From Candidatus Methanophagaceae archaeon (GTDB lineage Archaea > Halobacteriota > Syntropharchaeia > Alkanophagales > Methanospirareceae), in the NCBI GenBank assembly GCA_003194425.1, contig PQXB01000001.1, positions 1,030,444 to 1,062,443 on the forward strand: DNA of 32,000 bases. The letters are read 5' to 3'. The notes beneath the pieces were generated by a model. It had not been told where the DNA came from. It made no database searches and saw only the letters and a program-made list of their open reading frames with translations. The position numbers were made by a program, and so were the translations under genes. Position 1 is the first letter of the stretch. The number at the start of each line of letters is the position of its first letter. This document shows, piece by piece, positions 4,558 to 30,518 of the stretch.

Positions 4558-5553
4558 ATGCGAAAAGATTACGATTTGGTTGTGGTCGGTGCGGGTCCGG
4601 CGGGGCTGACTGCAGGAATTTACGGCGCACGGAGCGGGCTGGAGACGGTGGTGCTGGAGAAGGGGATTTGCGGTGGGTTGTCGAACGAGGCGCCAGAGAT
4701 TGAGAACTACCCGGGGTTCAAGAAGGTCGCGGGTCTGGAATTGGCAGAGCGGATGAAGGAGCAAGCGGCGGAGTTCGCGGAGCTGAAAGAGTTAGAAGCG
4801 GTTGAAAAAATAGAGCAGGTGCGAGGAGAGGAGGGGAAGAGGAGGAAGAAGGTGCGAGGAGAGGAGGAGAAGAGGAGGAAGAAAGAGGAAATGAAGGTAG
4901 TCACCGAGAAAGGCTCTTACGTTGCAAAAGCGGTAATTTTCTGCACAGGAACGCGGCACCGAAAATTAGGGGCAGCGAGGGAGGACGAGTTTCTCGGGCG
5001 GGGCGTCTCCTACTGCGCCACCTGCGACGGCTTCTTCTTCCGCAACAAGCAAGTAGCAGTGGTCGGCGGCGGGGACTCGGCGGTTAGAGAAGCCCTGCAC
5101 CTCAAGAAGCTCGGCTGTGAAGTAACCCTAATTCACCGCCGAGACAAACTCCGAGCAGAGCCGTTTTTGCAGAAGCGACTGAAAGAGGCGGGCGTTCCTG
5201 TCTTGTGGAACTCGGTGGTGCTGGAAATTAAGGGAGACAGCAGAGTGAGGAGCGTTCTCAGATTTGACAAAGAACGAGAGAGCGAGGAGGTGGTTGAGGT
5301 TGAGGGCGTCTTCGTCTCGGTCGGAGAAGAGCCTGCAAACGAGTTGGCGCTGCAACTCGGCGTTGAACTGAACCAAAGCGGCTACGTGGTCACGGACAAA
5401 AACCAAAGGACGAACCTTGAGCGAGTCTACGCCGCGGGCGACCTAACAGGAGGCGTGAGGCAGGTTGTTGTGGCGTGTGCCGAGGGGGCGGTCGCTGCTA
5501 CTTCCGCTTACAACGACTTGCTGGGGTTGGGCGGCGAGGGCGGCGGAAAATGA
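4558..5553 (+). CDS. trxB: Thioredoxin-disulfide reductase
   Basis: Motifs seen are YDLVVVGAGPAGLTAGIY (FAD), the CATCDG redox CxxC, VVGGGDSAVREA (NADPH) and YAAGD. The protein carries an approximately 30-aa charged insert made by a 33-bp duplication. Confidence 0.85.
   Translation: MRKDYDLVVVGAGPAGLTAGIYGARSGLETVVLEKGICGGLSNEAPEIENYPGFKKVAGLELAERMKEQAAEFAELKELEAVEKIEQVRGEEGKRRKKVRGEEEKRRKKEEMKVVTEKGSYVAKAVIFCTGTRHRKLGAAREDEFLGRGVSYCATCDGFFFRNKQVAVVGGGDSAVREALHLKKLGCEVTLIHRRDKLRAEPFLQKRLKEAGVPVLWNSVVLEIKGDSRVRSVLRFDKERESEEVVEVEGVFVSVGEEPANELALQLGVELNQSGYVVTDKNQRTNLERVYAAGDLTGGVRQVVVACAEGAVAATSAYNDLLGLGGEGGGK
4819..4884 (+). repeat. 33-bp x2 in-frame tandem duplication inside trxB
   Basis: GTGCGAGGAGAGGAGGGGAAGAGGAGGAAGAAG is followed by a second copy with 2 mismatches. 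It encodes VRGEEGKRRKK VRGEEEKRRKK. Confidence 0.9.
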
Positions 5554-6284
5554 GAGCGAGAATGCGGGAAATCGGGGTTGACGAAGCAGGAAAAGGTCCA
5601 GTAATTGGCTCGATGTTTGTCGCGGGGGTCTTGAACTTTGAGGGCTTGGAAGGGCTGGGAGTAAGGGATTCGAAGAAAGTAAGCCCGAAGAGGCGGGAAC
5701 TCCTCGCAGGACAAATTGAGGCTGCGACCGAGGTTCGTGTCGTGGAATTGACCGCGAGCGAGATTGACGAGAGCAGAAAGAAGCAGACCTTAAACGAGAC
5801 GATGGTCGAACTCTTCTCTGCAGTGATTTCCTGTTTTCAGCCTCCGCCTGACCGGGCTTTCGTCGACGCTGCAGACGTCAACCCCGCAAGGTTCGCCGCG
5901 AACATTAGAGCCTGCTGCGAGAGGCGAGGAAGGGAAAGGGCAGAGGCAAGGCAAGGGGGAGAGGCAGGGCAAGGGGGAGAGGCAGAAAGAGGACTGGAAA
6001 TTATTTCCGAGTCCAAAGCAGACGAACGCTACCCCGTAGTCAGCGCAGCGTCAATAATCGCAAAACTCCGCCGAGACAGGTCAATTCGGCTGCTCGAGGC
6101 TGAACTCGGTGCTGAAATCGGGAGCGGCTACCCCGCAGACCCGAAGACCGTTCAATTCCTCCGCGGGCTGCTGAACGGTGCAGGGGCGGAAATTCCTCCG
6201 TACGTGCGACACTCTTGGAAAACCGTCAAAACCCTTTCCTCCACAAATTCTTCTTTCCAGCAGCGTCTGAAGGAGTGGCTCTGA
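5550..6284 (+). CDS. rnhB: Ribonuclease HII
   Basis: Motifs seen are GVDEAGKGPVIGSMFVAG, DSKKVSPKRRE, VDAADV and ADERYPVVSAASIIAKLRRD. The start is chosen at an ATGA overlap with the trxB stop; an alternative ATG lies at 5562. The gene contains an 18-bp x2 duplication at 5950-5985. Confidence 0.8.
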   Translation: MRARMREIGVDEAGKGPVIGSMFVAGVLNFEGLEGLGVRDSKKVSPKRRELLAGQIEAATEVRVVELTASEIDESRKKQTLNETMVELFSAVISCFQPPPDRAFVDAADVNPARFAANIRACCERRGRERAEARQGGEAGQGGEAERGLEIISESKADERYPVVSAASIIAKLRRDRSIRLLEAELGAEIGSGYPADPKTVQFLRGLLNGAGAEIPPYVRHSWKTVKTLSSTNSSFQQRLKEWL

Positions 6285-6304: not shown

Positions 6305-7687
6305 CTAAAAGGGTCCCTCTACCCTTTTTACCCTCTTTCGCCCCCTCTCCCTGTCCTCTTCAATCTGCCGCTCGACCGAGAGTAGAGCGTCCTTCAGCAC
6401 CCCAACAAAATCCCACCGCCTCTTTCCTGCCTTCTGCTCGTTCATTTCTTCCTCCCCCTCTGCTACTGCTTGGGTGTGAGAGTGGCTGCCACCGCCACTG
6501 CCAGTGCCACCTGGCTCGCTCTGAGCGACGTACAACTTGTCAGGCGTCTTCACGTGCGCACTGATTTTATAATATGAAATTCCGCCTTTGTCCCGCTCCT
6601 TCTTTAGCACTATTTTTATCCAGTGCACGCGTTTAGCGATTCTAACAATTTTCCGCACCTCGGTTTCGATAATTTTGTCTGCGAGTTCCTTGTGTTCCTC
6701 GTCGAGAGAGCCTTGAATCTCGATATTTATTTTCGCCTTCTCTTTAAGGTCCCGCAGATATTTCATTATGTCGAGAATTGTAACGACTCCTCTCGGAACC
6801 CCCACTCCTTCTCCTTCTTCCCTCCCCTCGCTAACTTCTCCGCTCACGATTGGCACGCCGCGAATGTCGTGCTCTTGCAACAGGCTCGCTACTTCTGCGA
6901 GGCTTGCGTCAGGGCTGGCGGTTGTTACAGGCGAGCTCATAACGAGAGAGACGGGCTGCTCCATTATTGGAATGTTCTCGCCCTTCACCTCGCCGACGGT
7001 CGTCTTTCGCATCGGTTTGTAAATTTTTAAGATGTCTCCGCTGGTAACGATGCCCCGCAATTTCCCGTCCGCGTCGACGACGAGTAGCCGCCCGATGTTG
7101 TTCTTTCGCATAATGCTTCTCGCTCTGCCGATGCTTTCGGTCTCTTCTACGCAGACAAGGTCGCGGGACATTATTTCTGCAGCCTTGACCTCGCTCAAAA
7201 TGACCGACTCCGCCCCGCGTTTCATAAAGTCGTACTCGGAGACGATTCCCACGAGTTTGCCGTCGCCTGCAGTGACTGGCGCTGCCCGCTGCCCGCTGTC
7301 CACCAGCTCGCAGATTGCGTCAAGGGTCGTCGTGTCTTTGTAGACGCAGTGTGGCTTGAACATTACTCCCTCTACACTGGATTCGGGATTTGAGACAACG
7401 AGCAGGTCTTGCATACAAACGTGGTAAATCTCGCTGCAGGCACCTCCTCTTCCGCCTCTTCCTCCCCCTACTCCTCCTTTTCTTCCACTCCTTCCCCCAC
7501 TGCTACTTCCTCCGCTCCTTCTCCCACTGTTACTTCCTCTGCCGCTGCTGTCTCCGTCGCCAGCAAGCACAACCAGGTTGTGGAAGTTGTTTTTTTCCAT
7601 TATCCCAATCGCCTTCGCTACCGAGGTCTCGGGCGTTATTGTGGTTACCTCTCTCGTGCTTATCTCAATTACAGGCTCGTTAAACAT
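6305..7687 (-). CDS. Four-CBS-domain protein with a C-terminal HPF/RaiA (S30AE)-like domain
   Basis: 460 aa. The four CBS motifs include TITPETSVAKAIGIMEKNNFHNLVV, GIVSEYDF, GRLLVVDADGKLRGIVTSGDIL and IRGVPIV. The C-terminal segment INIEIQG..EEHKELADKIIETEVRKIV...VHWIKIVLKKE...YYKISAHVKTP..LYVAQSE...LKDALLSVERQIEE matches the beta-alpha-beta-beta-beta-alpha pattern and the ERQ(L/I) motif of HPF/YfiA. Confidence 0.6.
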   Translation of the reverse strand: MFNEPVIEISTREVTTITPETSVAKAIGIMEKNNFHNLVVLAGDGDSSGRGSNSGRRSGGSSSGGRSGRKGGVGGGRGGRGGACSEIYHVCMQDLLVVSNPESSVEGVMFKPHCVYKDTTTLDAICELVDSGQRAAPVTAGDGKLVGIVSEYDFMKRGAESVILSEVKAAEIMSRDLVCVEETESIGRARSIMRKNNIGRLLVVDADGKLRGIVTSGDILKIYKPMRKTTVGEVKGENIPIMEQPVSLVMSSPVTTASPDASLAEVASLLQEHDIRGVPIVSGEVSEGREEGEGVGVPRGVVTILDIMKYLRDLKEKAKINIEIQGSLDEEHKELADKIIETEVRKIVRIAKRVHWIKIVLKKERDKGGISYYKISAHVKTPDKLYVAQSEPGGTGSGGGSHSHTQAVAEGEEEMNEQKAGKRRWDFVGVLKDALLSVERQIEEDRERGRKRVKRVEGPF

Positions 7688-10007: not shown

Positions 10008-10074
10008 ATTTTTTCGTAGGATTTTTTCGTAGGTAGATCAAAAAACTATTTTTTCGTAGGTAGATCAAAAAACT
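10008..10074. repeat. 27-bp x2 tandem repeat plus a 13-bp partial copy in a convergent intergenic region; each unit carries T6 and A6 runs
   Basis: ATTTTTTCGTAGG occurs at 10008-10020. ATTTTTTCGTAGGTAGATCAAAAAACT occurs at 10021-10047 and again at 10048-10074. Confidence 0.9.
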
Positions 10075-10169: not shown

Positions 10170-10925
10170 TTAGGATTTGGAAGAAATCGCAAATCGTAAT
10201 TTTATGATTTTGTAGAACATCGTGAGCCCGTCCTTAAGAGAATTTACTTTTGTCCCTGCTCCTCCTTTGTCCTCCCACCGCACTGGGATTTCTTTTATTT
10301 TGTAGCCTCGCCGTTGCGCACGCACGAGCAGCTCGGTGTCCCAGAACCAGTGGTTGTCTTTTATTTCGTCCAAGAGCGACACCAAAGCGTCTCTTCGGAA
10401 GGACTTGAAACCGCACTGGTGGTCTCGTATTTTGGAGTTCAGGATTCTTCGCACCAGGAAATTGAAGACCCTGGTCATCGCTGCTCGCTTGAACGATCGC
10501 TTTACTTCGCTGTTTTTCAGCATTCTCGAGCCGGTTGCGAAATCGTAGCCTTCCCCGCCCTCCTTTTTTACAGCCCACAGCAGCGGCTTCAAGTGGCTCA
10601 TTTCTGTGGAGAGGTCTGCGTCGAGGTAAGCCAGAACCTCGCCTTTAGCGTGCTTGAAAGCGCGGTTGAGCGCCGTTCCCCGCCCCAGCCGTGCGTCGCT
10701 GTGCAGGTGCGTAACCGCAGGCACGAGGGCAGCAATTCTGCGGGCGGTTTCCGCGGTGCCGTCGGTGCTCCCGTCTTCGGCGATGATTATTTCAAAAGCA
10801 CCCGAACGGAGAAACTCCTCTAAAGCTCTCTTTGTCTCTTTTACCGCTTCTTCAACTCTTCCCGCCTCGTTGTGCGCGGGGAGCACGACCGAAAATTCTA
10901 CTTTCTTCGTCCTTTCTGCGTGCAT
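10170..10925 (-). CDS. Glycosyltransferase family 2 (dolichyl-phosphate hexose synthase-like)
   Basis: 251 aa with motifs FSVVLPAHNEAGRVEEAV, IIIAEDGSTDGT, LDADLS and a GT-A fold pattern. Confidence 0.75.
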   Translation of the reverse strand: MHAERTKKVEFSVVLPAHNEAGRVEEAVKETKRALEEFLRSGAFEIIIAEDGSTDGTAETARRIAALVPAVTHLHSDARLGRGTALNRAFKHAKGEVLAYLDADLSTEMSHLKPLLWAVKKEGGEGYDFATGSRMLKNSEVKRSFKRAAMTRVFNFLVRRILNSKIRDHQCGFKSFRRDALVSLLDEIKDNHWFWDTELLVRAQRRGYKIKEIPVRWEDKGGAGTKVNSLKDGLTMFYKIIKLRFAISSKS

Positions 10926-10974
10926 TTTCGTCTCTCGCCCTCTTTCACTAAAATTCAGTTTTAGGGATAAAAAG

Positions 10975-11012
10975 GGGAAGGGGGGCGAGTTGAGGGAAGG
11001 GGGGCGAGTTGA
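10975..11012. repeat. Perfect 19-bp x2 G-rich tandem duplication upstream of the fqo operon
   Basis: GGGAAGGGGGGCGAGTTGA occurs at 10975-10993 and again at 10994-11012. Confidence 0.9.
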
Positions 11013-11061
11013 GGGGAGGAGAGAAAAGAAAAAGCGAAAAAAGCGTGAAAAAATCGAAACT

Positions 11062-11071
11062 CTTTTTAAGA
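11062..11071 (+). promoter_or_regulatory. TATA-like box upstream of nuoJ
   Basis: CTTTTTAAGA lies about 27 nt upstream of the ATG at 11093, which suggests a short or absent leader. Confidence 0.3.
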
Positions 11072-11092
11072 GGCAGGTAGAAAAGTGGGTTT

Positions 11093-11581
11093 ATGAGTGT
11101 AGAAATGTTGCTCTTGTTGGCGCTGGCGGGGGCTGCTGCTCTCTCAACTTTGGGCGTCCTGCTCAGCAGGGACAACTTTTATTCTGCAGTTTTTATGTCG
11201 CTGACGCTGGTTTCGGTCGCCACGATTTACGCTTTCTTCTCTCTCCTGCCTGTCTTTGTCTTGATTGTGTTCGTTTTTGTCGGCGCGATTGGGATCGTAA
11301 CAGTAGCGTTGGCAGCGACTTACAGGACGACGGCTGCACCCGAATTCCAATTCTCGCTCTTGTGGGCGGTTCCTGTGGTTGCGACCGCTGCGATTTTGGG
11401 CTACTCAATTTATTCTTACGCGACTGCCGTGCCCGCCGTCACGGCGGTCTCAATTCACTCAATTTCGTTCAGCGTTGAGAATTTCGTGACGAGCGAGTAC
11501 ACGCTGCTCTTCTTGTTTCTTACTTCGCTTGTCGTGTTGCTGCTGCTCTCGGTGCTAAATATTTATAAGGAGGAGGGCTAA
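11093..11581 (+). CDS. nuoJ: F420H2 dehydrogenase / NADH-quinone oxidoreductase subunit J
   Basis: 162-aa polytopic membrane protein with a FVFVGAIGIV motif (compare the YxGA motif of NuoJ). Its position directly before nuoK supports the call. Confidence 0.6.
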   Translation: MSVEMLLLLALAGAAALSTLGVLLSRDNFYSAVFMSLTLVSVATIYAFFSLLPVFVLIVFVFVGAIGIVTVALAATYRTTAAPEFQFSLLWAVPVVATAAILGYSIYSYATAVPAVTAVSIHSISFSVENFVTSEYTLLFLFLTSLVVLLLLSVLNIYKEEG

Positions 11582-11592
11582 CAAGAGATAAA

Positions 11593-11925
11593 ATGCCTGC
11601 GATGAACCTGGACCTGACGACCGTGTCAATAATTTACGCAACCGCGCTCGCAATTCTGCTTGCAGGCTACTTCACTGCGATTTCGTGTAAAGACCTGATC
11701 AGGCTGCTAATTGCGTTAGAACTGATGTTTGGGGGGGTTTTTATGGCGTTGATTCCGCTCTTCTCGGTCGCAGCGCTCGCCAGTCCCGCCTTCGCGGCCG
11801 CGATAATTACGATCTTCACGAGTGGCGGCGAACTCTTAATTCTCATCGCCGCGATCGTGATTCAAGACCGCAGGAAGAAGAACATCTTCGTAAGCGGGAT
11901 TAAAGCCGGAGGTGAGAGGTTGTAA
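11593..11925 (+). CDS. nuoK: F420H2 dehydrogenase / NADH-quinone oxidoreductase subunit K
   Basis: 110 aa with 3 TM helices. The motifs LLIALELMFGGVF and TSGGELLILIAAIV resemble NuoK. Confidence 0.7.
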   Translation: MPAMNLDLTTVSIIYATALAILLAGYFTAISCKDLIRLLIALELMFGGVFMALIPLFSVAALASPAFAAAIITIFTSGGELLILIAAIVIQDRRKKNIFVSGIKAGGERL

Positions 11926-11926
11926 A

Positions 11927-13441
11927 ATGGACACGCTCTCGAATCTGCTCTTTCTCTGCCTGCTCTTGCCGTTAGTCGTGGCGTTTGTAGCGCCGCTTTT
12001 CTCGCCCAAGCGAGCCACCTACCTCTCTTTTCTCGCTTTTATTCTGCCGTTCTTCGCGATAATTTACAGCGTCTTCAAGGTCGCGCCGTTTGAAATCCCA
12101 TTAACGACCTTCTCACCGCCAATTGGCGAATTTTATCTTCATTTTGACTTTATTTCTTACGCGTTTGGGCTCACGATTTGCATTGTCTCTGCGATGATCG
12201 CGCTCTTCGCACTGCCTTATATGAAGCACAGGTTTGAAGAAATGGGTCGAGAGGTGGAGAGCGAGTTCAGGAAATACATATTTTTATACGACCTCTACGC
12301 GGCGTCGATGCTGTGGCTCGTCTTCAGCGGGAACTTCGTGCTGCTTTATGTTTTCCTTGAAATCACGCTAATTACCGCGTTCCTACTTATTTACACCTAC
12401 GGCTACGGAAACAGAAAGTGGGTGGGAATGCTCTACTTAATTTGGTGCGCAGTTGCAGGCGTTCTGACTTTGGCGGGGATTGTTCTGGTCGCGTTTGAGA
12501 ACGACACACTTGCCCTAAATGTTTTAATGGCGGGCGGAAAGGTGAGCACGCTCGCGTGGGCGTTTATTTTTGCGGGGATGATAATTGAGCTTCCTGTTCT
12601 GGGTCCTCATATTTGGTTGCCGTGGGCGCACGCCGAAGCGCCGACGCCCGTGAGTGCGTTGCTAAGCCCGCTGACTGTGGGGTTGGCGGGCTACGTGCTG
12701 CTGCGGACTGCACTCATTGACTACTCTTTCATCGAGACTTACCGAATTCCAATTCTCGCCTACGCGATATTTTCAAGCATTTACGGCGGTTTCTCGGTCT
12801 TCAAGCAGACCGACTTCAAGCGACTGCTCGCCTACTCAACGGTCTCGCAAATGGGCTACATTTTGGTCGCACTCTGCCTCGGTCCCTTCGGTCTCATTGG
12901 GCTGGTAATCCAATATATGTCGCACGCGTTCGGCAAGTCAATTTTGTTTTCGAGTGCGGGCGGAATAATCGCAGTTCACCACGGCTTGCGGGACATCAAC
13001 AAAATGGGCGGGCTGCACGACTCTATTCCTGCGATTTCGAACGCCGCGGTGCTCGGTTTCCTGAACCTCGGTGGAATGCTGACGGTCGGAATGCTCGGCG
13101 AATTTTTCATTCTGCGTGGCGTCGTTGAGACTTTTGGTGTTACAAAAAGCAGTTTAGGAATTATTTTGGCGGTGATTTTTATGTTTATTCTTTCGGTTTG
13201 GTACGGGTTTTACACGATTCGGAAGGTCTTTTACGGCAAGCCGAGAAGCACGAAGCGGCTGGAAATCAGCAGGTACCTTTACGTGCCACTCTACATAATC
13301 GGGATTGTCTCGGTGCTGTTGCTCTTCCCTCCGCTGTCAACGGTGCTAATTCAAGGACTTAATTTGATTTCGGGCTTGGGTTTAGGCGGTTTAGGAGTTG
13401 GAGGGGTAGGAGTTGGAGGGGTAGGAGGTGTGGTGCCGTGA
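11927..13441 (+). CDS. nuoM: F420H2 dehydrogenase / NADH-quinone oxidoreductase subunit M (antiporter-like)
   Basis: The motifs HIWLPWAHAEAPTPVSALLSPLTVGLAGY and LLAYSTVSQMGY are seen. A GGAGGTGA SD lies upstream of the ATG at 11927. Confidence 0.75.
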   Translation: MDTLSNLLFLCLLLPLVVAFVAPLFSPKRATYLSFLAFILPFFAIIYSVFKVAPFEIPLTTFSPPIGEFYLHFDFISYAFGLTICIVSAMIALFALPYMKHRFEEMGREVESEFRKYIFLYDLYAASMLWLVFSGNFVLLYVFLEITLITAFLLIYTYGYGNRKWVGMLYLIWCAVAGVLTLAGIVLVAFENDTLALNVLMAGGKVSTLAWAFIFAGMIIELPVLGPHIWLPWAHAEAPTPVSALLSPLTVGLAGYVLLRTALIDYSFIETYRIPILAYAIFSSIYGGFSVFKQTDFKRLLAYSTVSQMGYILVALCLGPFGLIGLVIQYMSHAFGKSILFSSAGGIIAVHHGLRDINKMGGLHDSIPAISNAAVLGFLNLGGMLTVGMLGEFFILRGVVETFGVTKSSLGIILAVIFMFILSVWYGFYTIRKVFYGKPRSTKRLEISRYLYVPLYIIGIVSVLLLFPPLSTVLIQGLNLISGLGLGGLGVGGVGVGGVGGVVP

Positions 13442-15411
13442 TTGAGATTGACGCGTGGGTTGTTTTTTTACTGCTTTTCCTGACGCCGGTTGTCAGTAGC
13501 GTTCCGATTGCGTTGGCGTACAAGAGCAAGGGTTGGACAGAGAAGCTGCCGGTTCTTTCGGTGCTCGGCATCGGCGTCTCGGTCTTGGCGAGCCTTTACA
13601 TCTTTTTCACCTTCCCGCAAGAGTTGCCAGAATGCCAATTTTCATACAATTGGATTCCCGACCTCGGCATAAACATCGTCCTAATAACCGACTACTTGTC
13701 GCGGTTTATGGGCGTCGTGACCGCGGTCATCGCGTTTTTCATTGCGATTTACGGCTTGGATTATATGAAAGGCGACTACCGTCCCTCGTGGTACTGGTTC
13801 TTCTTCAACCTCTTCACCGCCTCGATGCTGCTCGTCGTTTACAGCGACAACCTGTTCCTGCTCTTCGTGGGCTGGGAGGGGCTCGGAGCGGCGTCGTGGG
13901 GTTTAATTGGACACTGGTTCCGGGACGACGACGACATTGCGTACGTGGGCAAGGCGGGGCGGAAGGTAGGACCGTTGGAGCTGAGTTGGCCGCCGAGCTT
14001 TGGCGGGTGGCGTGCAATCTCGACGATTCGGTTCGGTGATGTCCCGATGTTCTTCGCAATCGCTGCGATTTGGGTGCTGGCAGGCGGGAATCTCAACATC
14101 TCGCAGATTGACTGGGAATCGCTGTTCTTGGGAATTGGCACAGCAGGAACGATAATTTTGATGCTCTGTCTCTTGATGGGACTGTTCACGAAGTCGGCGC
14201 AGGTTCCGTTCTCCGAGTGGCTGATGACCGCGATGACAGGTCCCACGACTGTTAGTGCACTCCTGCACTCGGCAACGATGGTAGCCGCGGGTGCTTTTGT
14301 CTTCATCAAACTCACCTGGTACATTGAACCCTGGCACTTGCGTGGCGTTCCTGGGCTTGAGGGGGTTGAATATGTTTATCTTTTTGTCCTCTTCGTCGGT
14401 TTGATTTCAGGCTTGTACGGGGCGCTGGTAGGGTCAGGAATGCTTGAGCGCAAGGTTCTGCTTGCAGCCTCCACGATGTCGAGCATTGGCTTGATGTTCG
14501 CTGCTGCGGCTGCTTCTTTATGGGTCGGGCATTTCGCCGTGCTCGTCGCGTTCTGGTATATGGCAGTGCACGCGTTTGCGAAGGCGAGCCTTTTCCTCGT
14601 GGCAGGGCATTTGATTCACGCAACGCACAGCCGTTTCTCGTGTGGCGGTCTCGAGTTTGCGAAGCGGATGAAACCTGCTCTCGTCGTTACCGTCGTCGCT
14701 ACGACCTTCCTTGTAGGAATGCCGCCGCTCACTGCTTACTGGGTAAAGTCAGGAATGGACGAAGTGATGGAGCACCTGCTTCACGACTACCACATGGTTT
14801 TGCCACTTCTCCTTCTAATTCTAACTTCGCTGGTCTATTCTGCGGTTATGGCGAGGTTCCTCAGCCTGAACTTCATAAAAGGCGAGAAGCCGGAACACGA
14901 GCATTTAGAGGGCGGCGGGCTGATGAAACTCGGCTACTCTCTGATGGTTTCAGTTCTCCTTGTTCTTCTCTTCCTTATTTTCACGAGCAAGGAGACTGCA
15001 GAATTTGTCGAGGCTGGACTCGCTCCTGTCTCGTTTGTAGTGGGTTTAGGGGCGCTTGGTGCTTATTTGGTGGCGGCGAAAGTGCCGAGACTAAAAGCCC
15101 TTTCCAAAGTCCCCGGGACATTCTTCAGCGACCGAATGTACCTGCCGTTCCTGAACGACTACATTCTGCCGAAGATCGGCTTCTTCGCGGCTCACTTCGT
15201 TCAGAACTACGGAAACCGCGGCATCGACGGGTTCTTCAACACGAAGGTTGTGCCGGGGCTGTTTAGAGGGATTTCGAAGGGAATTCGGGCAGTACAAACA
15301 GGCTACCTTAAAACTTATGTTAAGATTGTGCTGGGCTTCGTGATGCTGTTCTTAATATTTGCTTCGTTAGGTTTAGGTGTGGGATTAGGATTAGGAGGTG
15401 CGGGACTGTGA
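13438..15411 (+). CDS. nuoL: F420H2 dehydrogenase / NADH-quinone oxidoreductase subunit L (antiporter-like)
   Basis: 657 aa with motifs LFLLFVGWEGLGAASWGLIGHW and PFSEWLMTAMTGPTTVSALLHSATMVAAG. A GTGA overlap joins it to the nuoM stop. Confidence 0.8.
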   Translation: MIEIDAWVVFLLLFLTPVVSSVPIALAYKSKGWTEKLPVLSVLGIGVSVLASLYIFFTFPQELPECQFSYNWIPDLGINIVLITDYLSRFMGVVTAVIAFFIAIYGLDYMKGDYRPSWYWFFFNLFTASMLLVVYSDNLFLLFVGWEGLGAASWGLIGHWFRDDDDIAYVGKAGRKVGPLELSWPPSFGGWRAISTIRFGDVPMFFAIAAIWVLAGGNLNISQIDWESLFLGIGTAGTIILMLCLLMGLFTKSAQVPFSEWLMTAMTGPTTVSALLHSATMVAAGAFVFIKLTWYIEPWHLRGVPGLEGVEYVYLFVLFVGLISGLYGALVGSGMLERKVLLAASTMSSIGLMFAAAAASLWVGHFAVLVAFWYMAVHAFAKASLFLVAGHLIHATHSRFSCGGLEFAKRMKPALVVTVVATTFLVGMPPLTAYWVKSGMDEVMEHLLHDYHMVLPLLLLILTSLVYSAVMARFLSLNFIKGEKPEHEHLEGGGLMKLGYSLMVSVLLVLLFLIFTSKETAEFVEAGLAPVSFVVGLGALGAYLVAAKVPRLKALSKVPGTFFSDRMYLPFLNDYILPKIGFFAAHFVQNYGNRGIDGFFNTKVVPGLFRGISKGIRAVQTGYLKTYVKIVLGFVMLFLIFASLGLGVGLGLGGAGL

Positions 15412-16799
15412 CAGATTTAACGATGTTTACAGTGGCTTTGGTGGTTTTAACGCTCGGAGCGGTCTTCTCTTTCAAGTTCCGTCCGCTTGGACTTGTAGGT
15501 GCGGTAGTCGCTCTTCTGCTTGGGCTTTATGCTTGTAGCTCGTTCCACTACGGCGTCTTCATCTTCGCAATCGGTCTCGTCAACCTGCTCTCACTCGGTG
15601 CGTTGGACAGCAGAATTAAGGGCGTGGACTACGGCTTGGTGGGTTTGATGGCTCTCGTGACAATGTATATTTTTAACACCTCCGATTTTGCTTTGGTTCT
15701 CGCAGCACTCGTGCTCGTCTCGGTTCCCACTTACATTTTGGTTATGCTTCGGGACGTCGAGGGAAACGGCGAGGGAAAGGGTGAAGGAGTGAGAAAGGGT
15801 GAAGGAGTGAGAAAGGGTGAAGGAGTGCGAGGGGAGGGAGGAGCAAACGTGGAAGTGGGCATTAAATACATCACTTTTATGGTCCTCGCGACCGTTCTCT
15901 TCTTAATCGGCGCGGTCATCTTGGCATACACGAAGAGCGCATTTGACGGATTCCTTTACGTGCTTGGCTACGTGCTGCTTGTTTTGGGCTTGTGCATTGA
16001 AGTGGGCGTCGCGCCAATGCACGAGTGGGTGCCGGATGTTTTCGCAGCCGCAGACCCGATTCCAATCTCAATTATCGCCTCGCTTGCCAAAATCGTTCCT
16101 TTCGTCGCTGCGTTGTTTATTCTAATTTACACTGCCTGCCCGCTGACCGCGTCGGTAAGCATCTTCACTGCAGTGCTTGCGGCTGTCTCGATGTTCACGG
16201 GCAACATCGGAGCGTTGACCTCAAAAGAGCCTGCGAGAGTTCTTGGTTACTCCACTGTTGCGAATATGGGCTATGTTTTGGCGTGTCTCGTCGTGGCGGC
16301 AAAACCCGAGTTCTTCTACTTCGCACTGACCGGCGGGTTAATTCTGTTGTTTGCGAACGCCGCGGGTAAAATCGGGTTCTTCAATGCGATAAAAGGAGGC
16401 GGGGCTTACTCTCCGCTTGTTTATTTGCTCGCCTTCTCGTTCATCGGCGTTCCGCCGTTGATGGGCTTCTGGGGCAAACTATTTATTCTCTTGTCGCTTG
16501 CGGAAATGCAGTACTACTGGCTAATCGGCGTTCTTGTCGTGAATTCCGCAATCTCGATTCCTTATTACATCAGGCTCGCAGGCGAACTCGGCTCGGCGAC
16601 AGGCTGGGAAACCAACCTCACTAACATCGTTTGCGTTGCGGTGGTCGTTTTGACTTTTGTTACAGTCTTTTTTGTGCCTGTAGAGTGGTTCTTTGCGAAT
16701 ATGCAGGCTGTTGCAGAGACGATTGGAATCGGCGCAGGAGTTGTAGGAGTAGGTGTGGGAGTAAGTGAAGGAGTAGTTGTGGGAGGAGGGGGAATTTAA
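15408..16799 (+). CDS. nuoN: F420H2 dehydrogenase / NADH-quinone oxidoreductase subunit N (antiporter-like)
   Basis: 463 aa with motifs VGVAPMHEWVPDVFAAADPIPISII and VLGYSTVANMGY. A GTGA overlap joins it to the nuoL stop. Confidence 0.75.
   Translation: MTDLTMFTVALVVLTLGAVFSFKFRPLGLVGAVVALLLGLYACSSFHYGVFIFAIGLVNLLSLGALDSRIKGVDYGLVGLMALVTMYIFNTSDFALVLAALVLVSVPTYILVMLRDVEGNGEGKGEGVRKGEGVRKGEGVRGEGGANVEVGIKYITFMVLATVLFLIGAVILAYTKSAFDGFLYVLGYVLLVLGLCIEVGVAPMHEWVPDVFAAADPIPISIIASLAKIVPFVAALFILIYTACPLTASVSIFTAVLAAVSMFTGNIGALTSKEPARVLGYSTVANMGYVLACLVVAAKPEFFYFALTGGLILLFANAAGKIGFFNAIKGGGAYSPLVYLLAFSFIGVPPLMGFWGKLFILLSLAEMQYYWLIGVLVVNSAISIPYYIRLAGELGSATGWETNLTNIVCVAVVVLTFVTVFFVPVEWFFANMQAVAETIGIGAGVVGVGVGVSEGVVVGGGGI
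15779..15832 (+). repeat. 18-bp x3 in-frame tandem repeat inside nuoN
   Basis: GGGTGAAGGAGTGAGAAA occurs twice perfectly (15779-15814) and is followed by a diverged third copy. It encodes GEGVRKGEGVRKGEGVRG. Confidence 0.9.
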
Positions 16800-16800
16800 A

Positions 16801-17205
16801 ATGATAGAAAACGCAGTAGTGGTGGGTTTGGTGCTCGGGTTTTGCGTAATTATGGATCTAGCGATTCTTGTGCTCAGCAAAATCCTGCCGATTTATTTCC
16901 CGTCGGCGGTGAAGCAGTCGCGGTGGGAGGCGGGGAACCTGCCGATAGAACGCCCGAAATACACGCTTCCGATGCAGTATTTTGGATTTATGTTTATGTT
17001 TATGGCTGCGGAGCCGATTCTCGTTGTCCTGCTCCTGCTCTCCGCTTACCCGACTACAGATTTCATTCTCCTTCTGCTGCTCGCTCTGCTGCTCCTCGTT
17101 CCTGCGATTTGGGTGGGCTACAAGGCGGCTCTTGAAATGGCGGCTGGTGGCTCAAAACATAGTGGCTCAAAACAAAAACAATTCAAAAATAAAAATAAAA
17201 GTTGA
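16801..17205 (+). CDS. nuoA: F420H2 dehydrogenase / NADH-quinone oxidoreductase subunit A
   Basis: About 134 aa with 3 TM helices. The motif WEAGNLPIERPKYTLPMQYFGFMFMFMAAEP resembles the NuoA loop (ECG..P...F...Y). The ATG lies 2 nt after the nuoN stop. Confidence 0.7.
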   Translation: MIENAVVVGLVLGFCVIMDLAILVLSKILPIYFPSAVKQSRWEAGNLPIERPKYTLPMQYFGFMFMFMAAEPILVVLLLLSAYPTTDFILLLLLALLLLVPAIWVGYKAALEMAAGGSKHSGSKQKQFKNKNKS

Positions 17206-17222
17206 AAAGAAAAAAGAAAAAG

Positions 17223-19709
17223 ATGGAAAAAGACGAGAAAGACAGGAATATTCGCATTCTCCGTTCTGGCGTTCTGGCGCCGCTGAAGAGGTGGGGCACG
17301 AAGTGGAGCCTCTGGCCGTGTCATTTCGTCACCTCGTGCTGCGGCGTTGAACTGGCGCACGCTTTTGGGTCAGGGTTTGACGGCGAGAGGTTGGGCACTC
17401 TAAATATGGGCATCTCAAGGCAGGCGAATTTCATCATCGTTGAAGGCACGATTACGCGGAAGATGGCACGAGCGCTGCGAATCGTCTGGGAGCAGATGCC
17501 CGACCCGAAGTTTGTGAATGTCATCGGAGCGTGCGGGCAGCGGGGCGGAATTTTCTGGAACAGCTACAACATTACTCGCCCTTCGGAAATCGTTCCTGTG
17601 GATTTCTTCATTCCCGGCTGCCCCGTAACGCCAGAAAGTCTTTTACGAGGCGTTCGAGCGGTTCAAGACAAAATCGTCGGCAAAGACGAGACAACGATAA
17701 AATTTAAGCACGTGGAATTACCCTCTGAGAGCAGTAAGAAAGGCAGGGAGAGCCTGGTGCCGACGACGCCGAAAATATTTGCACCCACTCCGCTGGTTCG
17801 TGTGGATTTTCCGAGAGCGAGCGAGGGCGGGGTTGAGTGGGAGTTTGGGAAGGGGCTGGTGAAGAATCTAAAGGCTCAACTGTCGGGGCTTTGTGATTCT
17901 GTTACCGTCACCGACAAGAACCGAATCGCGATTAAAACGACGCCCGAGAACTTTGTGGAGGTTGCGAGGCGGCTGAGTGAGGGCGGCGGCAACGGCAGAG
18001 GGAGCGGCAGCAGTGGGAGCGGCAGCAGTGGGAGCGGCAGCAGTGGGAGCGGCAGCAGCGGCAAGATTGGGATTGACCATGTGAAGAGCGTGAATGTTGT
18101 GGATGTGCCGCACGAGAAGAAATACATAATTGAATATTTGGTCTCGAGTTACGGGGACAGCAACGGCAACGGCAGAGAACTTATGCCTGTCCTCATAAAT
18201 ATTTTCACTAAAATAAGAAGAGAGGCAAGAAGAGAGGCAGGAGCAAAAGTAAAAAAAGTAAAATCAGAAGCAGAACCGAGTTTCCCCAGCCTCACGCCTA
18301 TTTGGGAGAGTGCGGATTATTCGGAGCGGGAAATGCACGACTTCTTCGGAGTTCGGTTTGAGGGGAACGAAGGAATGAATGCGAAGTTCATTCTCGCTCC
18401 CGAGACCGAGACACCGCTGAGAAAGGATTTCAAGATTGGGGAGGAGCAGTATGTTTTTGAAGAGGGTGCTCCGCTTGACCTCCCGATTGAGCTGACCTCG
18501 GACCTCAAAATGCCCGCGCCTGAAGAACTTTATGAGGAGGCGGAGGAGAATGAGGAGGTGGTTGCTCTCGTGGGTCCGCACCACCCCGGCAGCGGACACC
18601 TGCGGTGGATAATGCGTTTAAAAGGGGATGTTATTGTGGATGTTACGCCAGACCCAGGCTACGTCCACCGGTCGATGGAGAAGCTCGCTGAAAACCGTCT
18701 CTACATTCAGAACGTTCCGCTCTTCGAGCGGGCGAACATAAGCGACCCGTTTAATATGAATCTTGGCTACGTCCGTGCGATCGAGAACGCGCTCGGAATT
18801 GAAGTTCCAGAAAAAGCGAAGTACATCAGAACGATGCTGGCGGAGCTTTCGCGAATCGGCGCCTTCTTCTACGACTCTGGGATATTCTCGCTCTTCCTCG
18901 GGCATTCAACCGGGTTTATGTATGTCTGGGCGATTCGTGAGATGATTCTTGAGGCGGTGGTAAGAATGACTGGCTCGCGGTGCACACCCTCATTCATCAT
19001 TCCCGGCGGCGTTAGGCGAGACATTCCGAGGGCGGTGCTTGACATAACGAGCAACTTCACCTCTGCGATTCACAAACGGCTGAAGAAGTTCGAGGACATT
19101 TTTATTTACAACCCCGTCTTCGTTGCGAGGACGAAGGGCGTTGGCGTGCTGACACGGGAGGAGGCGATAAAATGCGGGATCGTTGGTCCTTTCTTGCGGG
19201 CTTCGGGCGTTGAATACGACATCAGGAAAGTAGAGCCTTACGAGGCTTACGACAAACTCAACTGGGAAGCGACGAGAGGCGACGGCGACGCCGCTGACTG
19301 CCTCGGCAGGTATATGGGCAGGTACGAAGAGATAAAGCAGAGTTTGAGCATTCTGAAGCAGGCGGTGGACGCAGTGAAGCGGATGCCGAGAGGCGATGTC
19401 ATTAGCGAGGAAATCCTCGGCGACTACAAAGAGGCGTCAAAAGACATTAAGGGACACCTCTACCACGTTTACGGCAACCTCGTCCTCCCAAAAGGCGAGT
19501 GGACTTCTGTTACCGAGTCTGCTCGAGGCACGCTCCTCTACTCAATCCTGAGCGACGGCGACTCAAATGTGCCCTACCGCGTCAGAATTGTAACCCCGTG
19601 CTGGATGAATCTGCGGGGAATTATTGAGGCTTCAAAAGGAGAGCGGGTAGCCGACTTCTGGTCAATCTACGGCAGCTTCGGCTACTTCCCGCCAGAAGCG
19701 GACAGGTGA
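17223..19709 (+). CDS. nuoBCD: Fused subunits B, C and D of F420H2 dehydrogenase / NADH-quinone oxidoreductase
   Basis: The B part has SCCGVELAH, IVEGTITRKMA, GACGQRGG and IPGCPVTPE. The C part has SLTPIWESADYSEREMHDFFGVRFEG...PLRKDF. The D part has GPHHPGSGHLRWIMRLKGDVIV...GYVHRSMEKLAE...PYRVRIVTPCWMNL...PPEADR. It is a single uninterrupted ORF. I prefer the ATG at 17223 over the TTG at 17202. Confidence 0.85.
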   Translation: MEKDEKDRNIRILRSGVLAPLKRWGTKWSLWPCHFVTSCCGVELAHAFGSGFDGERLGTLNMGISRQANFIIVEGTITRKMARALRIVWEQMPDPKFVNVIGACGQRGGIFWNSYNITRPSEIVPVDFFIPGCPVTPESLLRGVRAVQDKIVGKDETTIKFKHVELPSESSKKGRESLVPTTPKIFAPTPLVRVDFPRASEGGVEWEFGKGLVKNLKAQLSGLCDSVTVTDKNRIAIKTTPENFVEVARRLSEGGGNGRGSGSSGSGSSGSGSSGSGSSGKIGIDHVKSVNVVDVPHEKKYIIEYLVSSYGDSNGNGRELMPVLINIFTKIRREARREAGAKVKKVKSEAEPSFPSLTPIWESADYSEREMHDFFGVRFEGNEGMNAKFILAPETETPLRKDFKIGEEQYVFEEGAPLDLPIELTSDLKMPAPEELYEEAEENEEVVALVGPHHPGSGHLRWIMRLKGDVIVDVTPDPGYVHRSMEKLAENRLYIQNVPLFERANISDPFNMNLGYVRAIENALGIEVPEKAKYIRTMLAELSRIGAFFYDSGIFSLFLGHSTGFMYVWAIREMILEAVVRMTGSRCTPSFIIPGGVRRDIPRAVLDITSNFTSAIHKRLKKFEDIFIYNPVFVARTKGVGVLTREEAIKCGIVGPFLRASGVEYDIRKVEPYEAYDKLNWEATRGDGDAADCLGRYMGRYEEIKQSLSILKQAVDAVKRMPRGDVISEEILGDYKEASKDIKGHLYHVYGNLVLPKGEWTSVTESARGTLLYSILSDGDSNVPYRVRIVTPCWMNLRGIIEASKGERVADFWSIYGSFGYFPPEADR
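18000..18059 (+). repeat. 15-bp x4 in-frame tandem repeat in the NuoC part of nuoBCD
   Basis: GGGAGCGGCAGCAGT occurs 4 times (the last base of copy 4 differs) and encodes GSGSS x4. A separate perfect 12-bp x2 repeat (AGAAGAGAGGCA) lies at 18216-18239. Confidence 0.9.
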
Positions 19710-19712
19710 GAA

Positions 19713-19784
19713 GAAAGGAGAGGTAAAAGGAGAAGTAAAAGGAGTGGTGAAAGGAGTGGTGAAAGGAGTGGTGAAGAAGGAGAG
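19713..19784 (+). repeat. Degenerate 12-bp x6 purine-rich repeat (GAAAGGAGTGGT family) filling the nuoBCD-nuoH spacer
   Basis: The units read GAAAGGAGAGGT, AAAAGGAGAAGT, AAAAGGAGTGGT, GAAAGGAGTGGT, GAAAGGAGTGGT, GAAGAAGGAGAG. Every unit contains an SD-like GGAG. Confidence 0.85.
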
Positions 19785-19791
19785 CTAAAAA

Positions 19792-20931
19792 ATGCAAATA
19801 CAAATACAGGAAGCAGTAAATCAAATAATGAGTGCAGTAGCGAGCAATCAGGTGAATGTGCCACTTTTACAGCCGATTCTCGACTTGGTGGCACAAATTC
19901 CAATGGCAGGTTTCCTGGTCTCGTTCGTTCTTTGGAAGCCGTTTTTCGCAGCCCTGATTTGCCCGGGGCTTTCTACACTCGGGATTTTGCTGCTCGTCTT
20001 CCCGTGGGTTGAGAGAAAGCTCTGCGGTAGGATTCAGTGGCGGGTCGGGCCGCACGAGATTGTGTGGTGGCTGGGCGGGCTACCGCAAATAATGGCAGAC
20101 TCAGTCAAGTTCCTCTTCCAAGAAGTGATTGTGCACAAGGACGCAGACCGACCTTACTACCTGCAGTTCCCGTTCCTCTCGTTCATCGCCGCCCTCCTCC
20201 CGCTGCTCTTCATCAGTGCAGGAAATATTATCGCAATAGAAACGCCCTACGCGATACAGTTAATGCTGGCGTTGATCTGTCTCTTCCCTCTCTTTATTCT
20301 CGGTCTCGGCTGGGCGTCTAACAACAGATTCTCGTTCATCGGGACCGTGCGGGAGGCGTTTATGTCTTTCGCCTACGAGATTCCGTTCATCATTGCGGTT
20401 CTCGCGATGATCGTTCTGTACGGCACTTCTAATCCGCTGCAGATGTCAAGCACAGGCGGACTGTTGGAGTGGGGACTTTTCCGTAATCCTGTTGCAGCAT
20501 TCACATTTTTTGTCGCTGCTGCGATGGCGACTTCGCGGCTGCCCTTTGAAATCGCGGAGGCGGAGCAGGAGTTAGCTGCGGGACCGCATGTTGAGTATTC
20601 TGGGATTTCGTTCGGGCTCATTTATGTAATGTGCTACGAGAAGGCGTATATTTTGAGCGGCTTGATGACGATTTTATTTCTTGGCGGGGGCAGCGGTCCT
20701 GCAATTTCGGGGCTTGGCGACCTCTCGGGTGCGGTGTGGTTCTTGGCGAAGACGGTGGTTGTGATGACGACTTTGTTTGCTCTTCGGACGATTTACCCGC
20801 GGTACAGGCTTGACCAGGGTTTGAAAATCGGCTGGGGTGCGATGATTTCGTTGTCGCTGGTCGCACTTGCGTTGTCGGTTGTGATTGTGTTGGTGCAGGG
20901 AGGAATTGGTGGTGTAGAGGGAGTGGTGTAG
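19792..20931 (+). CDS. nuoH: F420H2 dehydrogenase / NADH-quinone oxidoreductase subunit H
   Basis: 379 aa and polytopic, with motifs VERKLCGRIQWRVGPHE and PFEIAEAEQELAAGPHVEYSG (the NuoH PFD..E.E.EL..G...EYS motif). Confidence 0.85.
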   Translation: MQIQIQEAVNQIMSAVASNQVNVPLLQPILDLVAQIPMAGFLVSFVLWKPFFAALICPGLSTLGILLLVFPWVERKLCGRIQWRVGPHEIVWWLGGLPQIMADSVKFLFQEVIVHKDADRPYYLQFPFLSFIAALLPLLFISAGNIIAIETPYAIQLMLALICLFPLFILGLGWASNNRFSFIGTVREAFMSFAYEIPFIIAVLAMIVLYGTSNPLQMSSTGGLLEWGLFRNPVAAFTFFVAAAMATSRLPFEIAEAEQELAAGPHVEYSGISFGLIYVMCYEKAYILSGLMTILFLGGGSGPAISGLGDLSGAVWFLAKTVVVMTTLFALRTIYPRYRLDQGLKIGWGAMISLSLVALALSVVIVLVQGGIGGVEGVV

Positions 20932-20980
20932 AGGGAGTGGTGTAGAGGGAGTAGTGTAGAGGGAGTAGTGTAGGTAGAGT
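20911..20980 (+). repeat. 14-bp x5 tandem repeat containing the nuoH stop codon
   Basis: GGTGTAGAGGGAGT occurs at 20911, 20925 and 20939 (perfect), at 20953 (1 mismatch) and at 20967 (3 mismatches). The nuoH TAG at 20929-20931 lies inside unit 2. Confidence 0.9.
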
Positions 20981-20999
20981 AAGGAAGAGAGGTGTAAAT

Positions 21000-21758
21000 A
21001 TGAAAAAGGTTTCAGTTTCGGAACAGGGCTTGGTAGAGAAGGCAAAGAGGCACGCAGCCGCCGTAGGAGTGGCGATGAAGGAATCGGTAACGCCGCTGAC
21101 TGCGACGGTGTTTTATCCGAGAGAGAGGAAGAAGATGCCGGACAATTTCCGTGGCTACCTCTTGTTCGACCCTGAGAAGTGCATAAACTGTTGGGAGTGT
21201 GCTTTTATTTGCCCTGCAAACGCGATTCAAATGAAAAAGGCACCGGCACCGAACAACCGCTTTTACCCGACGGTAGACTACGGTAAGTGCATTTTCTGCC
21301 ACTTTTGCATCGATTCCTGCTCTGGCGGTGCGTTGAGGACGACGAAGATTCACGATGTCGCCTACAGGGAAATGGGGGAGATGCTGACGCTTACCGAGGA
21401 GATGATTGAGCCGCCGGAGATAATTCGCGAGGACAAGAAGTCGGTGGAGTATGAAATTGAGAAGGACGATTTGCACTTGAAGAGGACGCGAGAGGTAGAC
21501 GGTCTTTTCGTCGAACCGACGCCGCCGGTGGAGATTCCTATGGTGAGTCAGTGCGTCGACAGGGCGAGCTGTCTCGGCTGTCGGGTCTGCGAAGAGGTCT
21601 GCGAGAGCGGTGCGATTTCGTCTTCTTCGGCAGAGGGGGTGTTGGAAGCAGAAGGGGTGTTGAGAATGAAAATAGATATTGAGAAGTGCACGGGCTGCGG
21701 GTTGTGCGTTAAGGAGTGTTCGATGCAGATTTTACGGCTTGTTAGAAGAGGGAAGTGA
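21000..21758 (+). CDS. nuoI: F420H2 dehydrogenase / NADH-quinone oxidoreductase subunit I with an additional C-terminal 2x[4Fe-4S] ferredoxin domain
   Basis: The NuoI core has FRGYLLFDPEKCINCWECAFICP and CIFCHFCIDSC. An approximately 110-aa extension carries CLGCRVCEEVCESG and CTGCGLCVKECS. Confidence 0.8.
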   Translation: MKKVSVSEQGLVEKAKRHAAAVGVAMKESVTPLTATVFYPRERKKMPDNFRGYLLFDPEKCINCWECAFICPANAIQMKKAPAPNNRFYPTVDYGKCIFCHFCIDSCSGGALRTTKIHDVAYREMGEMLTLTEEMIEPPEIIREDKKSVEYEIEKDDLHLKRTREVDGLFVEPTPPVEIPMVSQCVDRASCLGCRVCEEVCESGAISSSSAEGVLEAEGVLRMKIDIEKCTGCGLCVKECSMQILRLVRRGK

Positions 21759-21777
21759 GAAGGAGGTGAAAAAGAGA

Positions 21778-25900: not shown

Positions 25901-25957
25901 AAATTGACTTGCAAAGAAAGGCAAATAAGATAAAAAAATAGAGGAGAAGGCTTGAAA

Positions 25958-30436: not shown

Positions 30437-30492
30437 AGACAGAGAAGTTGAGACAGAGAAGTTGAGACAGAGAAGTTGAGACAGAGAAGTTG
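30437..30492 (+). repeat. Perfect 14-bp x4 tandem repeat starting at the base after the eno stop codon
   Basis: AGACAGAGAAGTTG occurs at 30437, 30451, 30465 and 30479. The eno TAG is at 30434-30436. Confidence 0.95.
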
Positions 30493-30518
30493 ATGGAGTA
30501 GAAACAGGGACAAGGAGA

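Follow-up and report, generated by a model that had tools for sequence, protein, structure and literature searches.

A probable HibA/AHA-type ribosome hibernation factor with low-complexity surface inserts in an ANME-1-related archaeon

The question raised by this locus is whether a single archaeal polypeptide joins a module of four CBS domains to a ribosome-hibernation fold, and what is to be made of a glycine- and arginine-rich segment that interrupts it. The locus lies in a 32,000-nucleotide (nt) stretch of a Candidatus Methanophagaceae archaeon (contig PQXB01000001.1, positions 1,030,444 to 1,062,443), hereafter the window. A first-pass annotation, made from the letters of the DNA, had read it as four CBS domains fused to an HPF/RaiA-like domain, with an insert resembling a eukaryotic RGG box. 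Our analysis indicates that the gene very probably encodes a HibA/AHA-type ribosome hibernation factor of an anaerobic methanotrophic (ANME-1, Methanophagales-related) archaeon. Its domain architecture, fold and family membership were established in this work, and we infer ribosome binding, nucleotide binding and a physiological role from the published homologs. The family was characterized by cryo-electron microscopy (cryo-EM) and genetics as the hibernation factor HibA of Pyrococcus abyssi (PAB; UniProt Q9UYR4; PDB 9SR9-9SRF and 9T7H; Madru et al., Nat Commun 2026, PMC13324472) and was independently named AHA from Haloferax volcanii HVO_2384 (Souza et al., bioRxiv 2026, PMC12934967). The CBS-HPF fusion is, then, already a published family, and the window gene is a new, previously undescribed but ordinary member of it. 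Since this archaeal fusion is now on record, HPF can no longer be regarded as a factor of bacteria and plastids alone, and the statement of the annotation to that effect is outdated. The gene and its parts are as follows, in window coordinates.

6305..7687, minus strand: hibA/AHA-family gene, ATG start, 460 amino acids (aa) plus stop codon (open reading frame listing)
6734..7687, minus strand: CBS module, residues 1-318, four CBS domains forming a disc (Pfam PF00571, AlphaFold model, Foldseek); approximate limits CBS1 5-97, CBS2 105-160, CBS3 170-223 and CBS4 246-312
6953..7024, minus strand: extended loop after CBS3, residues 222-245, IYKPMRKTTVGEVKGENIPIMEQP, the counterpart of the HibA 'PTC loop' (PTC, peptidyl-transferase centre) and of AHA 'loop 3'
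6308..6733, minus strand: HPF/RaiA-like domain, residues 319-460, in the order β-α-β-β-β-α (two AlphaFold models, Foldseek, alignment with HibA)
6416..6517, minus strand: disordered β4-α2 loop, residues 391-424, with a predicted local distance difference test (pLDDT) score below 50 in both models and a conserved KRRW at its end

The translation of the open reading frame was identical to the sequence quoted in the annotation, and its N-terminus reads MFNEPVIEIST where the homologs have MFDEPVIEIST. Searching the PDB sequences with phmmer placed chain H of 9SR9, the HibA-ATP entry, at the top (9sr9_H, E = 4.6e-21). This 392-aa chain is deposited as 'Dehydrogenase' and is identified by the literature as P. 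abyssi HibA. The alignment paired query residues 91-391 with chain residues 50-349, beginning at the end of CBS1, spanning CBS2-4 and entering the C-terminal domain, and a second, weak piece (query 423-448, chain 349-374) reached the last helix. A profile built from 79 homologs matched the same protein collinearly over chain residues 5-353 (E = 1.2e-37, 133 bits). The runners-up in that search were CBS-only proteins, SriC/D, MJ1225, SriA and Dri, which scored 93 bits or less and thus at least 40 bits lower.

The four CBS domains that had been proposed were confirmed by Pfam, in which PF00571 matched four stretches of the protein (E = 3.1e-46) and no other family was matched significantly. NCBIfam searches with the whole protein returned CBS-type matches only, all of them below threshold, including one to HhpR across the CBS region. 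A full-length AlphaFold2 model built from the 79-sequence alignment had a mean pLDDT of 74.7, with values of 84-94 in the CBS disc outside its loops. When this model was compared with the PDB using Foldseek, only CBS tetrads were returned (SriA/B, MJ1225, AMPK-gamma and Dri; E = 1e-18 to 1e-13; target-normalized template-modelling (TM) scores of 0.6-0.8), from a fold library that ends on 8 April 2026 and does not hold the HibA entries. The 79 homologs keep the G-h-h-T/S-x-x-D motifs of CBS2, CBS3 and CBS4 with little or no variation; the residues concerned are G212, T215 and D218 in CBS3 and G300, T303 and D306 in CBS4. Conservation of these ribose-phosphate motifs fits a CBS3/CBS4 interface that would bind adenine nucleotides, as described for HibA and AHA.

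The loop that follows CBS3 also has its counterpart in HibA: the window segment YKPMRKTTVGEVKGENIP (residues 222-245) aligned with the P. abyssi PTC loop KPRFKAQYGELAGEKIP (chain residues 183-207), and the counterpart in the phmmer and profile alignments reads IKPRFKAQYGELAGEKIPPF. Both proteins share the motif KPxxKxxxGExxGExxP, which is conserved in the 79 homologs, and positions P225, T230, G232 and G236 are invariant among them. In P. abyssi, loop residues 190-207 touch PTC nucleotides, and the loop wraps around the universally conserved A2834 (PMC13324472).

Because the full-length model had retrieved CBS tetrads only, residues 316-460 were modeled and searched separately. The resulting model (pLDDT 72.6) had the same topology as the full-length one when both were examined by DSSP, with β1 at residues 321-325, α1 at 330-351, β2 at 356-365, β3 at 371-380, β4 at 385-390 and α2 at 427-456. 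Its best 14 Foldseek matches in the PDB were all chains of HPF, RaiA, pY or RafH, taken from hibernating ribosomes or solved by themselves; they are bacterial or plastid proteins, one being a mycobacterial RafH. The matches included spinach plastid pY (5mmj_y, E = 6e-4), Psychrobacter RaiA (8rd8_D, target-normalized TM-score 0.78, root-mean-square deviation (rmsd) 2.5 Å), Listeria HPF (8uu7_w, 0.78, rmsd 2.4 Å) and E. coli HPF (2rql, 0.72), together with Vibrio HPF (4hei) and mycobacterial HPF and RafH. Unrelated folds first appeared at rank 15, with probabilities of 0.33 or less. The β-α-β-β-β-α order and the HPF/YfiA-like fold are therefore borne out by both models and by these 14 matches, and the comparison with HPF structures, on which the annotation had staked its reading, came out in its favor at the structural level for residues 316-460.

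The ERQ(L/I) helix motif that the annotation had pointed out is likewise real: the window protein has LLSVERQIEE, E. coli RaiA has INKLERQLNK and P. abyssi HibA has RAIERQLLQK, with IDKLARQLTK (LARQL) at the same place in E. coli HPF. The domain aligned with the C-terminal domain of P. abyssi HibA through β4 in the profile alignment and in α2 by phmmer. HibA/AHA proteins have archaea-specific insertions in the HPF domain at β1-α1 and β2-β3. In the β2-β3 hairpin, ERDKGGISY of the window protein was aligned with EKFRGVHL of P. abyssi, the deleted segment 324-330, and low identity blurs a three-residue insertion between β1 and α1. The β4-α2 loop is absent from P. abyssi HibA, in which chain residue 349 aligns to both query residues 391 and 423; it is 24 aa long in all the Methanophagales and Methanococcales homologs aligned and 31-34 aa long in the window protein, where an extra GSGGGSH segment (7 aa) is specific to its lineage.

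The closest relatives of the protein are 396-400-aa proteins of ANME-1/Methanophagales metagenome-assembled genomes, at up to 64% identity, followed by proteins of Syntrophoarchaeum, Methanoliparum and Methanococcales. One protein, P0002 on contig L001 of an independent ENA assembly, is a 94% relative. A HMMER scan of 1.84 billion cluster representatives retrieved 637 proteins at E <= 1e-10, and the HibA-type representatives were about 360-420 aa long, with alignments reaching into the HPF domain. Published surveys, whose genome set includes ANME-1, place the HibA/AHA family in 47% of archaeal genomes, and the AHA survey counted 3,160 homologs in 2,723 species (PMC12934967). ANME-1-type HibA proteins with 56-62% identity were also seen on three contigs labeled otherwise: L027 (DATKXZ010000005.1, Desulfobacteria bacterium), L047 (DYFG01000011.1, Nitrosotalea sp.) and L020 (DATKWH010000081.1, Bathyarchaeia). 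These contigs are probably mis-binned ANME-1 sequence, and the Desulfobacteria label of L027 fits the sulfate-reducing partner of ANME consortia.

Set beside known systems, the window protein shares with P. abyssi HibA a four-CBS module and a C-terminal β-α-β-β-β-α HPF/RaiA-like domain in one chain, collinearity extending to α2, the motif of the PTC loop and the ERQ of α2; it differs in its disordered β4-α2 loop and in three lineage-specific inserts of 42, 13 and 7 aa. AHA of H. volcanii has the same architecture and can be likened to it from the published description, with the HPF domain on the 30S A and P sites, the CBS tetrad on the 50S and loop 3 in the PTC; it comes, however, from a halophile, and no RGG-like insertion has been reported in it. 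With bacterial and plastid HPF, RaiA (YfiA) and pY, the window domain has the fold, the topology and the ERQ(L/I) of α2 in common and, by homology to HibA, would have the same 30S site; it carries extra loops and is fused to a CBS tetrad, whereas long-HPF has a dimerization domain instead. Dri (9E6Q/9E7F) and the SriA-D/ARC proteins of Methanosarcina and Methanolobus (9ZNF-9ZNI) are CBS-tetrad hibernation factors with an extended PTC loop, but they lack an HPF/RaiA domain, and it is CBS loops or separate subunits that obstruct the small subunit. According to published surveys, they and HibA/AHA are largely mutually exclusive across genomes. The crenarchaeal CBS hibernation factor to which the annotation had referred does exist. 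This is the Dri protein from Pyrobaculum calidifontis, which contains eight CBS domains but lacks an HPF domain. Separately, the CBS region also matched PDB chain 9l96_a (E = 1.5e-20), a 406-aa 'CBS domain-containing protein' present in 9l96, 9l98, 9l9c and 9l9v, which may be another ribosome-bound CBS factor.

By analogy with HibA and AHA, the HPF-like domain would occupy the 30S subunit's mRNA/tRNA channel at the A and P sites, while the four-CBS disc would dock on the 50S subunit, at the PTC, uL5 or the L1 stalk, with the CBS3 loop extending into the peptidyl-transferase centre. A single polypeptide would in this way bridge both subunits and block the binding of mRNA and tRNA, and the fusion would keep idle 70S ribosomes intact and shield functional rRNA. 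Binding in the 30S channel and on the 50S subunit, inhibition of translation and preservation of 70S ribosomes have been shown only for three proteins, those of P. abyssi, T. barophilus and H. volcanii (PMC13324472, PMC12934967). The CBS3/CBS4 interface of the window protein probably binds adenine nucleotides, with AMP the tightest: the CBS module of HibA has dissociation constants of 12 μM for AMP, 65 μM for ADP and 113 μM for ATP (PMC13324472), and AHA holds two AMP molecules at the CBS3/CBS4 junction (PMC12934967). The annotation had called the fusion an energy-charge-gated ribosome silencer. Adenine-nucleotide binding is probable by comparison with HibA and AHA, but gating goes further than HibA shows, since saturating AMP or ATP left the ribosome-bound states of HibA unchanged at equilibrium (PMC13324472); ATP-triggered release has been reported for the separate two-protein ARC system. 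The phrase is thus only partly supported and outruns the evidence.

The second part of the question concerns the low-complexity segments. The two that lie in CBS hairpins, together with the repeat found within the first, are located as follows.

7436..7561, minus strand: Gly/Ser/Arg-rich insert, residues 43-84, in the β2-β3 hairpin of CBS1 (alignment, model, composition)
7480..7539, strand not given: 27-nt tandem repeat, 2.2 copies, 87% match (Tandem Repeats Finder), codon-phased
6800..6838, minus strand: acidic insert, residues 284-296 (13 aa), EVSEGREEGEGVG, in the β2-β3 hairpin of CBS4, lineage-specific and length-polymorphic

The coordinates given by the annotation for the first insert were exact, as was its statement that the first CBS domain is interrupted there. 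Residues 42-86 (45 residues) comprise 19 Gly, 10 Ser and 7 Arg. The insert has a net charge of +6, contains one di-RGG (RGGRGG) and several RG/GR dipeptides but no tri-RGG or tri-RG, and is predicted to be disordered (pLDDT below 50 in the AlphaFold2 model). RGG regions are generally defined by di-RGG or tri-RGG patterns. Like the eukaryotic RGG/RG segments of FUS, hnRNP U and the glycine- and arginine-rich (GAR) domain of nucleolin, the insert is Gly/Arg-rich, disordered and positively charged and has the RGGRGG unit; it differs from them in having a single di-RGG, in being Ser-rich and repeat-derived, and in not being conserved among orthologs. The proposed resemblance to a eukaryotic RGG box consequently holds for the di-RGG pattern but not for conservation, and a dedicated RNA-binding role is unsupported, since the insert stems from a repeat, is limited to one lineage, evolves fast and has counterparts in unrelated proteins of the genome.

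The core of the insert is the 27-nt repeat, which encodes SNSGRRSGG/SSSGGRSGR. The insert was absent from 13 of the 14 aligned homologs and from all other homologs retrieved, being carried only by the window protein and P0002, and the alignments of all 150 cluster representatives resumed at query residue 85 or later. Contig L047 was considered as a further carrier and rejected, its extra match length being a masked run of N. An assembly artefact was rejected as the source: the insert is genuine because it is also found, in frame, on contig L001 of the independent assembly, at 98-99% DNA identity. Between the window protein and P0002, 4 of the 42 insert residues are substituted (9.5%), all by nonsynonymous changes, against 5 of the remaining 418 (1.2%; Fisher p = 0.005), a rate about 8 times that of the rest of the protein; four of those five other substitutions adjoin other disordered segments.

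An alternative to the insert being neutral is that it was gained adaptively, as a recent innovation; we consider this unlikely. The insert would then be a positively charged and flexible arm, supplying further rRNA contacts near 23S H69/H71 that tie the factor more firmly to rRNA, or clustering hibernating ribosomes. On this reading the protein would be a stronger or differently regulated hibernation factor in a very slow-growing lineage, and the insert would be a visible product of a genome-wide repeat expansion that creates new disordered regions in core proteins of this ANME-1 lineage, including uS15. In favor of an adaptive gain are the charge and RG content given above, the retention of a Gly/Ser/Arg composition despite the four substitutions between the two strains, the reading frame kept in two independent assemblies, and the position of the insertion point (D42-N44 in P. 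abyssi), three residues before Lys47, whose contact in the PTC-bound state is with the 23S A2168 phosphate at the H69/H71 junction. Against it, across more than 120 close homologs and the 150 cluster representatives the insert turned up in one shallow lineage only, it evolves about eightfold faster than the folded parts, and in P. abyssi the hairpin tip at D42-N44 makes no ribosome contact in any state according to the contact tables. The same protein also bears the acidic CBS4 insert (net charge -4), and similar repeat-derived segments occur in unrelated enzymes and in uS15 of the window. A modest electrostatic contribution of the insert to rRNA binding is, on balance, improbable. Most likely, the RGG-like insert is a tolerated expansion of a surface loop and not functional.

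The CBS4 insert is absent from other homologs and is 18 aa longer in P0002, a 54-nt indel at this point separating the window from L001; in P. abyssi, the corresponding residues 246-251 do not touch the ribosome. The three low-complexity inserts, namely the RGG-like one in CBS1, the acidic one in CBS4 and GSGGGSH in the β4-α2 loop, would be surface-loop expansions produced by in-frame tandem-repeat slippage, and they are most likely tolerated rather than functional. At least seven further proteins of the window have comparable low-complexity segments. In-frame tandem repeats were found at 4817-4883, 5926-5985, 15775-15827, 17995-18058, 24806-24872, 26238-26292 and 26806-26919, with periods of 12-45 nt that are all multiples of 3, and they encode Gly/Ser/Arg/Glu-rich segments in thioredoxin reductase, RNase HII, a NuoN-like subunit, a fused NuoBCD (within its linker), an FAD oxidoreductase, uS15 and a small acidic protein. 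Thioredoxin reductase has about 18 residues more than its solved homologs at a 33-nt repeat, and RNase HII about 22 more at an 18-nt repeat. In uS15 (25952-26506, plus strand), a GTGSGS-repeat segment of about 30 aa (residues 89-118) lies between the Ribosomal_S13_N and S15 domains, which is unusual for a core ribosomal protein. With segments of like origin present in these enzymes and in uS15, the RGG-like segment is best read as one instance of what looks like a genome-wide, mutational habit of repeat expansion. No publication on low-complexity insertions in ANME-1 turned up in a literature search.

Several observations weigh against assigning the gene to the HibA/AHA family. Judged by its gathering score, the Pfam profile PF02482 (S30AE) gave no hit in the window protein, and among 17 relatives it matched just 2, at E >= 0.023. 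Neither 9sr9_H nor any HPF was recovered when a profile of the C-terminal domain was searched against the PDB sequences. HibA was missed because the profile, with an effective number of sequences (Neff) of 2, cannot span so divergent a domain; matches of the same profile to RecA were discarded as spurious, as they fell on concatenated-repeat chains with per-domain scores near 7 bits. When that profile was compared directly by hhalign with the genuine HPF and RaiA of E. coli, the probability stayed at 1.4% or less, short of significance, though the alignment to RaiA fell in the expected register of β2, β3, 'TP' and β4. Of the profile checks that the annotation had proposed, then, the one for CBS domains succeeded, but the one for S30AE gave no match; both family papers report significant PSI-BLAST or HHpred links to HPF from deeper profiles (PMC13324472, PMC12934967). 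Furthermore, identity to P. abyssi HibA is low, the fold library is older than the HibA entries, so that the fold comparison rests on other structures, and the PTC-bound state could be changed or impeded by a 42-aa insert that lies three residues away from a contact with 23S rRNA.

Another reading takes the protein for a metabolic or transcriptional regulator built on a CBS tetrad, like HhpR/CM-3 or MJ1225, with a superficial resemblance to HPF and no action on the ribosome, a reading which the missing S30AE match and the sub-threshold HhpR match through the CBS region would favor but which is highly improbable and already largely refuted: the best PDB match by a wide margin is ribosome-bound HibA, aligned through the PTC loop into the C-terminal domain, the fold search with that domain was topped almost wholly by HPF/RaiA/pY chains, the ERQ motif and the β3-TP-β4 register are common to RaiA, and HhpR-type proteins are CBS tetrads lacking an HPF domain. 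Assignment to HibA/AHA is therefore retained.

The surroundings of the gene comprise RNase HII, thioredoxin reductase, GatC, DUF2112 and a BcrAD-family ATPase. A conserved gene neighborhood was not found, the same flanks recurring only in the near-identical contig L001. As listed mechanically, the RNase HII open reading frame (5475-6284, plus strand) begins with GTG 5475 and shares 79 nt with the end of the thioredoxin reductase gene (4558-5553, plus strand). Both the 244-aa gene called in L001 and an alignment with solved RNase HII structures point to the ATG near 5550 as the true start.

Farther along, a long Fpo/Nuo-type respiratory complex operon occupies 11093-22857 on the plus strand. 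It comprises three antiporter-like subunits (11912-16799), a single fused NuoB-NuoC-NuoD protein of 835 aa (17202-19709) with a GSGSS-repeat linker, NuoH, a NuoI-like ferredoxin and an FpoF/FrhB-like F420 subunit (21679-22857). Intergenic tandem repeats occur in this operon and near the enolase gene, at 19714-19790, 20909-20989, 30432-30493, 10008-10074 and 31639-31676, with units of 12 nt x 6.2 copies, 14 nt x 5, 14 nt x 4.4, 27 nt x 2 and 18 nt x 2. A 19-nt tandem duplication (10975-11019) lies between a family 2 (GT2) glycosyltransferase gene (10170-10925, minus strand) and the divergent first Nuo/Mrp-like gene, and is absent from the 98% identical contig L001 (at about position 1771). A 21-nt indel also falls inside a small membrane-protein gene (window about 11423, L001 1320). 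The open reading frame 10654..11478 (plus strand), with a Lys/Arg-rich low-complexity segment, was rejected as spurious, the real gene there being the GT2 glycosyltransferase (10170..10925, minus strand).

The fusion was deduced from raw sequence alone, and cryo-EM groups reported the family only in 2025-26, which supports this kind of reading. Biologically, the gene itself adds little: a deep-branching ANME-1 lineage carries a standard HibA/AHA with an unusually decorated surface. The members of this lineage are very slow-growing, uncultured methane oxidizers, to which keeping ribosomes intact plausibly matters. What stands out more is the genome itself, in that in-frame tandem-repeat expansions have put disordered Gly/Ser/Arg/Glu-rich loops into many conserved proteins of this organism.

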